From Alphaproteobacteria bacterium (GTDB lineage Bacteria > Pseudomonadota > Alphaproteobacteria > Rickettsiales > 21-14-0-20-44-7), in contig JAYVPI010000024.1 of assembly GCA_043757405.1 (NCBI GenBank), forward strand, positions 16,412 to 80,411: 64,000 nt of DNA, read 5' to 3'. Under the pieces are notes generated by a model that had not been told where the DNA came from, made no database searches, and saw nothing but the letters and a program-made list of their open reading frames with translations. A program made the position numbers and the translations under genes. This document shows, piece by piece, positions 6,997 to 7,070 of this stretch; positions within the stretch are counted from its first letter, which is position 1; every line of letters begins with the position of its first letter.

Positions 6997-7070
6997 GATT
7001 GCCGATTGCCGATTGCCGATTGCCGATTGAAAATATAAAATCGGCAATCGTAAATCGTAAATTGGCAATT
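6997..7070. repeat. hairpin element with tandem-heptamer arms, in the ruvA-ruvB spacer
   Basis: (gattgcc) x4.6 at 6997-7029, an A/T loop, then aaatcggcaatcgtaaatcgtaaattggcaatt as the inverted arm. Confidence 0.9.

Follow-up and report, generated by a model that had tools for sequence, protein, structure and literature searches.

The junction between ruvA and ruvB in an uncultured alphaproteobacterium holds a hairpin whose two arms are each a tandem array of a heptamer, and comparable structures recur along the 64,000-nt stretch of contig analysed here (the window). What kind of element this is, whether it belongs to a described class, and how such arrays come into being, are the questions that the locus raises. 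Heptamer repeats have been known since 1990 in cyanobacteria, since 2007 from genome surveys and since 2015 in Xanthomonas and Beggiatoaceae, and are the commonest long bacterial microsatellite. The cyanobacterial examples were reportedly described by Mazel et al. in 1990 as short tandemly repeated repetitive (STRR) heptamers. To our knowledge, neither that study nor the 2007 survey by Mrazek gives an account of hairpin pairing, or of a constant core with a variable spacer.

Arrays and hairpins in the window

Arrays were detected with TRF and with a scan of our own; all consist of contiguous, head-to-tail units of 7–8 nt. Eleven loci were recorded (Table 1). The ten that had been listed in an earlier note on this sequence all contain the repeats described there, as judged by TRF, by the scan and by inspection of the sequence. 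The eleventh, at 23924, was absent from that note; TRF reported it with a period of 7, 5.3 copies and 70% matches, and its sense strand reads GTAAACT GCCAACT GTAAACG GTAAACC GCAAACT. Two entries required amendment. The locus at 7222–7276 had been called two-armed; its array (7246–7276) is real, but the other arm (7222–7240) is only a degenerate inverted remnant, and the locus is essentially one-armed. The hairpin placed at 45075–45134 is indeed a two-armed array, but its arrays begin at 45063.

Table 1. Tandem arrays and tandem-armed hairpins of the window, with their genomic context
Feature	Position	Strand	Context
Two-armed heptamer hairpin	6997–7070	-	ruvA stop (7076) / ruvB start (~6981) junction
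Heptamer array with degenerate inverted remnant	7222–7276	-	In frame, flexible RuvA linker (residues ~136–154)
Two-armed octamer hairpin (GGTTACAT-like x4 / AACCATGC-like x4)	9157–9236	.	Divergent cyaY / PBP1A spacer
Degenerate heptamer array	23924–23960	-	C-terminal tail, gene upstream of cytochrome oxidase subunit I
One-armed array (AATCAAA)n	40743–40778	+	First codons, Cys/Met-metabolism PLP enzyme gene
One-armed array AATCATC x3, GATCATC, AAT	41169–41200	+	In frame, variable loop of PLP enzyme
One-armed perfect array (AATCGGC)4AATC	41939–41972	+	In frame, variable loop of PLP enzyme
Two-armed heptamer hairpin (GTTAATC-like / GAACGAT-like)	45063–45135	+	Directly upstream of, overlapping grx4 start (45126)
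Two-armed AATCGGC-type hairpin	54294–54368	-	In frame, hypervariable TldD loop (residues 97–122)
Two-armed heptamer hairpin (TAGTCNG-like / CAGACNA-like)	57887–57948	+	cysH 5' leader
One-armed array	59255–59293	+	Ends at cysD start codon (59292)

Both structures exceeded their shuffled controls in the window. A strict scan found six period-7 arrays where 0.02 were expected (100 dinucleotide shuffles, maximum 1) and one period-8 array against none in dinucleotide shuffles, while the same scan of the window gave zero arrays for periods 5 and 9–12. Long hairpins with short loops (arms ≥24 nt, ≥19 matches, loop 3–25 nt) were found at eight loci, against 0.07 expected from 30 shuffles. Four of these eight were tandem-armed (6991–7069, 9158–9232, 45066–45136 and 54290–54369); a fifth tandem-armed hairpin, at 57887–57948, has a loop of almost zero length and was picked up by a separate detection. 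Inverted pairing was seen at 5–6 of the 11 loci; the loops of the two-armed loci measured 0–22 nt, and the arms were 76–88% complementary with variant units out of register. When folded as RNA, the segments at 6990–7075 (-33.3 kcal/mol, z = -6.3), 9150–9245 (-35.5 kcal/mol, z = -5.5), 54288–54375 (-35.9 kcal/mol, z = -4.9, with 20 consecutive pairs), 45060–45140 (-20.8 kcal/mol, z = -3.5) and 57880–57960 (-20.6 kcal/mol, z = -2.8) were stable, and that at 7215–7285 was not significant (-17.1 kcal/mol, z = -1.05).

The proposals that one architecture is carried by different units, and that many of these share an AATC core, were both upheld; the core was present at 8 of the 11 loci, against approximately 5% expected for a random heptamer unit, and the remaining three have AGTC, AACC or AAAC. 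Each AATC-type arm of the window contains five AATC cores at 7-nt spacing (~32 nt). Thus, the left arm at 6997–7070 is (GATTGCC)4GATT and the right arm, beyond an A/T loop of 10 nt, is AATCGGC AATCGTA AATCGTA AATTGGC AATT, with five cores on either side; each arm at 54294–54368 also has five. Within arrays the 3-nt spacer varies (GGC, GTA, GAG, GTG, AGC, AAA) and the core is kept, a pattern that looks like constraint on the core. AATC lies on the sense strand in all four one-armed arrays; in the hairpins the arm order is mixed, most AATC-type pairs having the GATT arm first. Outside the arrays, few tetramers are as over-represented as AATC (observed/expected 1.8) and CGGC (2.8), and AATCGGC often occurs as a single heptamer; potential seeds are therefore plentiful. 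CcrM sites (GANTC) were considered as a common feature and rejected; they require a spacer with G as its last base, and AATCGGC contains none.

Six of the 11 loci are wholly or partly coding: three belong to the PLP gene, and one each to ruvA, tldD and the cox-associated tail. These arrays are confined to segments that are variable in alignments, and the reading frame is preserved; the AATCGGC unit is free of stops in all six frames. Arrays end 0–20 nt ahead of the start codon at ruvB, cysD and the PLP gene. The adjoining genes have housekeeping functions that are unrelated to each other. A Beggiatoaceae or cyanobacterial origin of the sequence, which the heptamers might suggest, was rejected, since among named protein relatives the best are uncultured Alphaproteobacteria.

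Orthologous sites in relatives

At the syntenic loci of relatives with 72–87% DNA identity there were 0–2 arrays per 10–21 kb, and none of the hairpins of the window was found at the syntenic loci of the relatives compared; the arrays are lineage-specific. The same sites can hold other insertions. In two relatives (L128 and L130) ruvA and ruvB overlap (ATGA) with no spacer, in place of the hairpin, and this overlap is the ancestral state; a third relative (L129) has a different palindrome at the junction. The RuvA linker, which in the window includes AATCGGG AATCGGC AATCGTG AATCGGC AAT (7246–7276, forward strand), has different heptamers, AAGGGGY and AGGGGCT, as its coding sequence in L129 and L130. 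Between the divergent cyaY and PBP1A genes there is nothing but the octamer hairpin, whose right arm contains the start called for PBP (9213); L128 has an unrelated AT-rich spacer of 45 nt there. In L127, grx4 overlaps the preceding gene and the hairpin is absent. The cysH hairpin is flanked by a conserved promoter-like block and the cysH ATG (57953); three relatives keep the block, followed by merely 12–35 nt and then ATG. Upstream of cysD, the array (AATCAAA AATCAGC AATCGGC AATCAGC AATCGGC AAT) is matched in position by (CAATCAA)n in L125, and two further relatives (L123 and L124) have none. The TldD loop is 26 aa long in the window and 17 aa in relatives of 84–89% identity, and the PLP enzyme loop at 41939–41972 has 11 residues against 6–9 in relatives.

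The clearest comparison concerned the start of the PLP gene, which reads ATG ACC (AATCAAA)4 in the window, ATG AAC AAT CAA CTA in L126 and ATG AGC GAT CAA CAA AAA in L127. The array supplies 7–8 extra residues following Met-Thr-Asn-Gln, and the gain of 21 nt equals three units, or seven codons. To judge from these relatives, this array grew in place from a local AATCAA seed; among the mechanisms that the note had put forward, 'self-expanding' is accordingly the one that fits best. Taken together, the comparisons with relatives show arrays arising where they now stand, whether at operon junctions, in the leaders of genes or in flexible loops of proteins.

Known repeat classes and other phyla

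REP/REPIN and Rickettsia palindromic element (RPE) families have a conserved consensus of 20–150 nt and are spread by transposases (RAYT for REPINs); the Rickettsia elements lie in frame inside conserved genes and differ in presence between relatives. The loci of the window are likewise small hairpin repeats whose presence differs between relatives, but their only shared consensus is a 4-nt core and their arms are internally tandem. No common palindrome consensus of the REP/BIME/REPIN kind was present, units and loops differing from locus to locus. At the six two-armed loci, whose insertion points were compared with relatives, neither duplicated flanks nor common termini of the MITE kind were found. 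The repeats of a CRISPR (23–47 nt, with unique spacers of similar size) were not seen; the units are 7–8 nt and contiguous. No terminator-like site overlapped the hairpins in 6500–9500 or 57500–59500, and it is start codons rather than T-runs that follow the hairpins. The only match to Rfam at gathering score in the window was a tRNA (30676–30749), none falling on the arrays. The note was therefore right to set REP/BIME, CRISPR and simple terminators aside, and a literature search returned no relevant paper on AATCGGC or its rotations.

The class had nevertheless been described. Heptameric GGGAATC / GGGNATC repeats are reported in Xanthomonas and Nostoc (Rehm et al. 2015, PLoS One, PMC4692102), inverted pairs included, contrary to the note's statement that no described class was recognised. 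In Xanthomonas 70–75 arrays per genome are accompanied, at a distance of tens of nt, by an inverted partner, and the tables list the units GGCAATC, GAGAATC and GTGAATC; pairs lie between operon genes (groES-groEL, atpA-atpG), with one inverted pair inside purL; the arrays are short, mostly of four units, and vary in length and sequence between close species (PMC4692102). Rotated, GGGAATC becomes AATCGGG, a unit present at the ruvA locus of the window, and the loci at 6997, 7246, 41941, 54294 and 59263 match the Xanthomonas unit or its variants (GGGANTN; GGCAATC, GAGAATC, GTGAATC). Those at 40743, 41169 and 45063 have only the AATC part in common with these units, and the units at 9157, 23924 and 57887 do not match. 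Frequent pairing with the opposite strand within tens of nt is common to Xanthomonas and the window. The two differ in that the arms of the window have five cores rather than four units, loops of 0–22 nt rather than 21–67 nt, and mostly the GATT arm first rather than GGGAATC first; about half of the loci are coding, against 7–11% in Xanthomonas, so that its ~90% non-coding bias is not seen; and, unlike in Xanthomonas, several unrelated units and one octamer share the same architecture. Four G-tracts of at least three G, as a G-quadruplex needs, do not occur in the arrays, whose sole GGG is at 7250. A quadruplex account of the length preference cannot apply to the dominant AATCGGC unit, which has no run of three G; a short fixed length persists in units unable to form a quadruplex, and the preference for 4–5 units therefore needs a different explanation.

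Start-adjacent heptamers likewise have a precedent. The TAACTGA direct repeats of marine Beggiatoaceae, some Cyanobacteria and Bacteroidetes occur in 2–6 copies, mostly in one orientation with a start codon following within a few nt; certain reverse copies are in frame in peripheral parts of proteins, and the phyletic distribution is patchy (MacGregor 2015, Front Microbiol, PMC4679880). Proximity to start codons is shared by the loci at cysD, ruvB, cysH, grx4 and the PLP gene. Inverted arrangement is an exception for TAACTGA (1 of 170; PMC4679880) and common in the window; every forward frame of TAACTGA contains a stop, in contrast to AATCGGC, and TRF found no TAACTGA array in the window. As summarised in PMC4679880 and PMC4692102, Mrazek (2007) found heptamers to be the most abundant long class of simple-sequence repeat (SSR) in SSR-rich genomes, phylogenetically scattered, and polymerase slippage was proposed as their origin. 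In the hmw adhesin leaders of Haemophilus influenzae, phase-variable heptanucleotide repeats are reported between promoter and start, and expression can depend on their copy number and RNA structure (PMC12721329, PMC8262952). The hmw repeat is a long single array of pathogen contingency genes with no inverted arm, whereas the window has housekeeping neighbours.

The arrays are heptanucleotide simple-sequence repeats of 'NNN-AATC' type, in the class of the Xanthomonas GGGAATC, cyanobacterial heptamer and Beggiatoaceae TAACTGA repeats, and are neither a mobile element nor a dedicated RNA gene. What is new is the uncultured alphaproteobacterial host, units without G-tracts, five-core arms with variable 3-nt spacers, and arrays that abut starts or lie in frame in RuvA, TldD and PLP loops and are missing at the orthologous sites of relatives.

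A pattern scan of genome contigs, selected for AATCGGC, gave a cross-phylum sample of at least 120 loci in many phyla. Because of that selection, the apparent uniformity of units in the sample is inflated; even so, 82 different canonical units were present among these loci, many coexisting within one genome. AATC-N3 units were found in Xanthomonas, this alphaproteobacterium, Acidobacteriota, Verrucomicrobiota, Planctomycetota, Chloroflexota and Cyanobacteria. Among the matches listed, 34 of 123 AATCGGC arrays (28%) had an inverted partner, against 0 with shuffled flanks, and, of the 81 heptamer arrays situated over 300 nt away from the ascertained ones, 35 had AATC as their core (~5% expected). 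Runs of 3, 4, 5, 6 and 7 cores numbered 69, 68, 49, 8 and 8 among the at least 120 loci; array length thus falls sharply beyond five cores among the matches listed from other phyla. Upstream of ORF starts, 22 of the AATCGGC arrays listed were sense and 8 antisense (p = 0.016), under strict ORF-start rules, since TTG codons occur inside arrays. A fixed arm order was rejected, with GATT first in 23 and AATC first in 11 of the pairs listed, a mixed order in the window and the reverse in Xanthomonas.

The window also contains two further palindromic repeat families (GTCATTGCGAG...GGCAATCC...), each with three copies, and one of these lies in frame within the PLP gene; the repeats contain GGCAATC. 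A link between them and the arrays was rejected, there being 1 and 2 matches in the 845 kb around the at least 120 loci, and no relevant paper on these sequences was found.

Origin of the arrays

The explanation towards which we lean, with somewhat more belief than doubt, is that arrays are born in place by replication slippage, copied into inverted pairs and tolerated where they are harmless. First, a short local AATC-containing sequence would be duplicated by strand slippage at replication, as seen directly at the PLP gene start, and would grow in 7-nt steps up to about five cores (32 nt). Second, an inverted copy could be laid down beside the array by intramolecular template switching (fold-back priming), which may be how second arms originate; this would yield two equal-length arms around a short unrelated loop, later drifting by slippage and point mutation. 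In tldD, the variant unit GATTCTC of one arm and the complementary GAGAATC of the other stand two units out of step, and these arms appear to be related by inverted copying followed by slippage. Third, as their locations show, arrays survive only where they do little harm, in leaders, intercistronic junctions, flexible linkers and hypervariable surface loops; in leaders and junctions the stem-loop keeps flanking signals near each other, and in proteins only in-frame, stop-free versions persist. As side effects, stable mRNA stem-loops of 20–30 bp directly before the ruvB, cysH and grx4 starts would be expected to affect the initiation of translation and could serve as substrates for RNase III, and a perfect 4-unit array within a coding region would be a frameshift hazard.

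Plain slippage should give a smooth decay in copy number and mutations anywhere. Against this stand the five cores in every AATC-type arm found, the sharp five-core cut-off and the sense-strand bias among the matches listed from other phyla, the constant core beside a variable spacer, and the recurrence of one core in unrelated phyla. All but the last of these features would be expected if, as the note had also suggested, the arrays were the footprint of a protein that binds heptad-spaced sites, more precisely cis sites at which a single-strand RNA- or DNA-binding protein reads AATC (AAUC) at 7-nt spacing, about five per site; a cold-shock-domain, S1-domain or KH-domain protein, or a ring-shaped oligomer, might be the binder. 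Such a protein would control translation or mRNA stability of the following gene, the inverted arm sequestering the site in an on/off structure, much as was proposed for the TAACTGA repeats (PMC4679880), and the sense orientation of all one-armed arrays and their closeness to the starts of ruvB, cysD and the PLP gene agree with this. We consider it possible but unlikely. The arrays are not conserved at orthologous genes of close relatives, and so there is no conserved regulon; half of the loci are in coding loops where regulation is implausible, the adjoining genes are functionally unrelated and three loci have other cores. Rehm et al. found no function and no regulatory role for the Xanthomonas arrays (PMC4692102), and no candidate protein was found in this analysis. 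That five-core AATC arrays, often mirrored, are the product or binding site of one conserved putative factor is decidedly unlikely; such a factor could be common to Xanthomonas, this alphaproteobacterium and many Acidobacteriota, Verrucomicrobiota, Planctomycetota, Chloroflexota and Cyanobacteria.

The equal length of the two arms, the narrow limit of ~32 nt and the AATC-N3 units in Xanthomonas, this alphaproteobacterium and five further phyla would also be explained if a dedicated enzyme wrote the arrays. It might be a reverse transcriptase or a polymerase that adds repeats, or else break repair might extend DNA ends by 7-nt units and by fold-back copies, much as telomeres are extended; one enzyme would account for one unit family and one length limit in distant phyla. 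This seems quite improbable, given that at least one array derives from local sequence, that the at least 120 loci have 82 canonical units, many per genome, and that uniformity is inflated by selection for AATCGGC; no such enzyme was seen in this analysis. We know of no repeat-adding enzyme of this kind.

The earlier note had also allowed that the hairpins might be mobile. As miniature elements of MITE-, REPIN- or RPE-like kind, moved by a transposase in trans into intergenic sites or into genes in frame, they would have the observed hairpin shape, the presence/absence differences at orthologous sites, AATCGGC-type hairpins at three loci, the occupation of protein loops in frame that Rickettsia palindromic elements show, and the company of two palindromic families. 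This is highly improbable: conserved ends, conserved loops and target duplications were not seen, one-armed arrays of the same units exist, the arms are imperfectly complementary with variant units out of register, the array of the PLP gene has clearly grown from local sequence, and the co-resident families do not accompany AATCGGC arrays in the 845 kb from other genomes. No single element can have been copied to all of the loci, because each differs from the others in unit and loop.

Chance or assembly artefact can be given practically no credence and is refuted by the results, for although two short-read Logan contigs (L001 and L002) stop partway through the array at 6997, with which assemblers evidently struggle, these independent assemblies are 100% identical to the window up to the break, the structures exceed shuffles by two orders of magnitude, the coding copies keep long conserved reading frames open, and the same structures occur in finished Xanthomonas genomes (PMC4692102).

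On the preferred reading of slippage followed by inverted copying, the relatives provide before-and-after comparisons of array birth. The arrays lengthen or rewrite the loops of housekeeping proteins and break short-read assemblies, and they place stems of 20–30 bp before start codons, where gene callers and expression models ignore them. The AATC core, variable 3-nt spacer and five-core cut-off seen across phyla make a binding or generating factor testable; were one conserved factor responsible, the arrays would represent a widespread system for writing or reading sequence instead of passive slippage.

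Heptamer arrays and hairpins in the window

The window, a chromosomal segment from an uncultured alphaproteobacterium, encodes ruvB, ruvA, a TAXI solute-binding protein, cyaY, a class A PBP, fliD, purL, grx4, flagellin, metE, tldD, cysH and cysD; for three of the encoded proteins, the best named relatives were metagenome-assembled Alphaproteobacteria. A strict scan identified six period-7 arrays and one of period 8, and none at periods 5 or 9–12, while 100 dinucleotide-preserving shuffles produced a mean of 0.02 period-7 arrays (maximum 1). Eight hairpins had arms of 24 nt or more and loops of 3–25 nt, against 0.07 in shuffles, and the arms of four of these were tandem repeats. 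The earlier note had named ten repeat loci and called for such a comparison with shuffled controls; the described repeats were present at all ten, with only small corrections, and an eleventh, degenerate array was added. RNA folding of the five two-armed loci gave -20.6 to -35.9 kcal/mol (z = -2.8 to -6.3 against shuffled controls); the cysH hairpin, nearly without a loop at its centre, was detected by an inverted-repeat tool. The ruvA-internal locus had been listed as two-armed; its array was present, but it folded near shuffled controls (z = -1.05) and has one arm, with a decayed remnant on the other side.

The tetramer AATC, which the note had seen in many loci, underlay 8 of 11, where about 5% is expected for a random heptamer unit. 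All AATC-type arms contained five cores at 7-nt spacing (~32 nt in the AATC register), separated by variable 3-nt spacers (GGC, GTA, GAG, GTG, GGG, AGC, AAA, ATC), and AATT was frequent as the outermost core. The remaining three loci were built on AGTC, on AAAC and on the octamer GGTTNCNT/AACC. Hairpin arms were equal in length within a few bases and just 76–88% complementary, and their loops were unrelated between loci. At tldD, one arm contained the variant unit GATTCTC and the other its complement GAGAATC, displaced by two units. The arms are related through inverted copying, with slippage afterwards.

Other repeats were also observed in the window. The hexamer array TAACAC x3.8 was the sole array outside the heptamer and octamer classes to pass the strict scan. 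A palindromic repeat of 80–90 nt (CGTCATTGCGAG ... GCGGCAATCC - loop - GGATTGCTTCGC ... CTCGCAATGACG) was present in three copies, one of which adds ~32 residues (SSLRGGNADAAIHTGGASEPGLLRSARNDV), missing in close relatives, to the PLP enzyme; the repeat was not found in the syntenic loci of relatives, nor was a literature match found for its sequence. A second family (ACGTCATCCTGAGC..GAAGGATC - loop - GATCCTTC..GCTCAGGATGACGT) included one perfect, loop-less 27+27 nt palindrome. An isolated hairpin with 29-nt arms, 97% complementary (TGTCACCCCGTCGCATGACGGGGTCCAGC / ...) and with shorter palindromes nested, was unrelated to the other families. The + strand was strongly asymmetric (A 28%, C 28.5%, G 19%, T 24%), with a GC skew of about -0.2 in all 2-kb bins. 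Third-codon-position skew, in + strand letters, was negative in both gene orientations (+ strand genes, -0.54; - strand genes, -0.42), so it tracks the chromosome strand and not the direction of transcription.

Placement of arrays and comparison with relatives

Repeat features of the window and of the RuvA linker in two relatives (L129, L130)
Coordinates	Form	Location	Placement class
6997-7070	two-armed hairpin	ruvA/ruvB junction	start codon
7222-7276	array	RuvA flexible linker	in frame
9157-9236	two-armed octamer hairpin	fills divergent cyaY/PBP spacer	start codon
23924-23960	array	C-terminal tail	in frame
40743-40778	array	begins after fourth codon, Cys/Met-metabolism PLP enzyme	start codon
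41169-41200	array	loop of PLP enzyme	in frame
41939-41972	array	loop of PLP enzyme	in frame
45063-45135	two-armed hairpin	across grx4 ATG	start codon
54294-54368	hairpin	TldD hypervariable loop, 26 residues vs 17 in relatives	in frame
57887-57948	two-armed hairpin	cysH leader	start codon
59255-59293	array	ends at cysD ATG	start codon
L129 6431-6463	AAGGGGT AAGGGCT AAGGGGC ...	RuvA linker	
L130 6429-6460	AGGGCCT AGGGTCA AGGGGCT ...	RuvA linker	
46633-46655	hexamer array	flagellin gene	
20717-20795	80–90 nt palindrome		
41327-41411	80–90 nt palindrome	PLP enzyme gene, in frame	
57722-57797	80–90 nt palindrome		
22241-22294	second palindromic family	intergenic	
48306-48370	second palindromic family	intergenic	
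63474-63548	second palindromic family	intergenic	
33644-33714	isolated hairpin		

Arrays lay either directly before or across start codons, or in frame within conserved genes, and every in-frame copy occupied an alignment-variable segment of its protein. No Rfam family overlapped any array, none of the hairpins within 6500–9500 and 57500–59500 coincided with a terminator-like site, and no element consensus was shared between loci, which bears out the note's rejection of REP/BIME, CRISPR and simple terminators. Two short-read assemblies of this organism (L001, L002), made independently and 100% identical to the window, both ended at window 7002–7004, within the (GATTGCC)n array; the arrays are breakpoints for assembly.

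Eight syntenic loci on related metagenomic contigs (72–87% DNA and 67–89% protein identity) had 0–2 weak heptamer arrays apiece and lacked all of the window's hairpins; the arrays are lineage-specific. At ruvA/ruvB, two relatives have an ATGA overlap (L128, L130, around 6600–6612) and the window a 94-nt gap that includes the hairpin; a third relative has a different, G+C-rich palindrome of 120 nt (L129 6609–6730, CTCCCTCAGGGAGG...CCCTCCCTGAGGGAGGGG). Hairpin-forming DNA seems to have landed at this junction repeatedly. A promoter-like block upstream of cysH was common to all four genomes (the window and three relatives), and was followed at 12–35 nt by the ATG in relatives, and by the 62-nt hairpin in the window. 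The PLP gene begins ATG AAC AAT CAA CTA in relatives and ATG ACC then (AATCAAA)4 in the window, which is 21 nt longer; this array has therefore grown from local sequence by three units, with the frame kept. The RuvA linker is coded by different G-rich heptamers in two relatives (AAGGGGY in L129, AGGGGCT in L130); with different arrays at one position in three lineages, permissive sites have evidently been colonised repeatedly. At cysD, the AATCAGC/AATCGGC units of the window correspond to (CAATCAA)n in the closest relative (L125). Additionally, L125 carries a gene of the bAvd / 23S rRNA-intervening-sequence type between cysH and cysD (2339–2707), with CAATCAA-type arrays on its flanks; a 178-aa ORF (58717–59253) takes this position in the window.

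Heptamer arrays in other genomes

An exact (AATCGGC)3 scan, with one genome per species, returned at least 120 loci (L003–L122); the matches listed came from Acidobacteriota (many Pyrinomonadaceae), Verrucomicrobiota, Planctomycetota, Chloroflexota, Cyanobacteria, Alphaproteobacteria and others. Among these listed matches (845 kb) there were 267 period-7 arrays, against 1–13 for each of periods 5, 6, 8, 9 and 10. Because the loci were picked for the AATCGGC unit itself, this and the following figures describe heptamer-rich genomes and not bacteria generally. AATC was present in 35 of the 81 heptamer arrays more than 300 nt from ascertained arrays among the matches listed. In the same set, a reverse-complement arm lay within 90 nt of 34 of 123 arrays with full flanks, and of none when the flanks were shuffled; the order was GATT arm first in 23 pairs and AATC arm first in 11. 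Still among the listed matches, runs of 3, 4, 5, 6 and 7 exact AATC cores at 7-nt spacing numbered 69, 68, 49, 8 and 8, and perfect-run lengths peaked at 24–26 and 31–33 nt, i.e., n units plus a closing AATC. AATCGGC located 3–44 nt upstream of an ORF start was sense in 22 cases and antisense in 8 (p = 0.016, conservative ORF rule, matches listed). The listed matches also contained 82 canonical units, including AATCGCC, AATTGCC, AATCTGC, GACTGCC and GGGAACA; unlike arrays often adjoined, or the unit switched along one array (e.g., L055, L086, L089).

The earlier note did not recognise a described element class; in fact, hairpin-paired heptamers have been described, though neither named as an element nor explained. 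Two Xanthomonas genomes have ~185 GGGAATC arrays each, typically of four units, heterogeneous ones conforming to (GGGANTN)n, with 70 and 75 opposite-strand pairs a few tens of nt apart as potential stem-loops (Rehm et al. 2015, PMC4692102). Pairs occur at the groES/groEL, atpA/atpG and atpD/atpC junctions and one within purL; GGCAATC, GAGAATC and GTGAATC units are tabulated; lengths vary between the two species; and the majority are transcribed, with no regulatory role found (PMC4692102). GGGAATC is AATCGGG in another register, a unit present in the window's ruvA locus. A limit of five cores holds here for a unit that lacks G-tracts, an argument that the Xanthomonas preference for four units need not reflect G-quadruplex formation. 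A Beggiatoaceae genome has 169 TAACTGA arrays of 2–6 units, mostly ending a few nt from a start codon in a single orientation, some in frame in peripheral protein parts, with one inverted pair; the proposed regulator is an RNA-binding protein, for example S1, Csp or CsrA (MacGregor 2015, PMC4679880). Both papers cite Mrazek et al. (2007) for heptamers as the dominant long bacterial microsatellite, with polymerase slippage as their cause (PMC4692102, PMC4679880).

Origin of the arrays

We favour birth in place by slippage, followed by inverted copying and selective filtering. Replication slippage on common AATC-containing seeds would create the arrays; such seeds are abundant, since AATC and CGGC were among the most over-represented tetramers outside arrays in the window, and single AATCGGC heptamers were frequent. 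Template switching would then copy an array in inverted orientation, and selection would filter the survivors. Leaders and junctions may tolerate arrays because a stem-loop reunites its two flanks, and flexible protein segments because only in-frame, stop-free versions last; AATCGGC is stop-free in all six frames. The self-expansion suggested by the note is plausible given the PLP array, although slippage as the process is something we infer, as are template switching as the source of second arms and all effects on expression.

The slippage account leaves four things unexplained: the protected core with its free spacer, the limit of five cores in the window and across phyla, the sense-strand bias, and why the same core recurs in distant phyla. 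These points lend some weight to two alternatives: binding sites, judged unlikely, and a dedicated activity generating the arrays, judged very improbable. A mobile element is slightly more doubtful still, there being no shared element consensus, and chance or artefact is excluded. Of all these features, the constant core, the limit of five cores and the broad phyletic spread most deserve follow-up.
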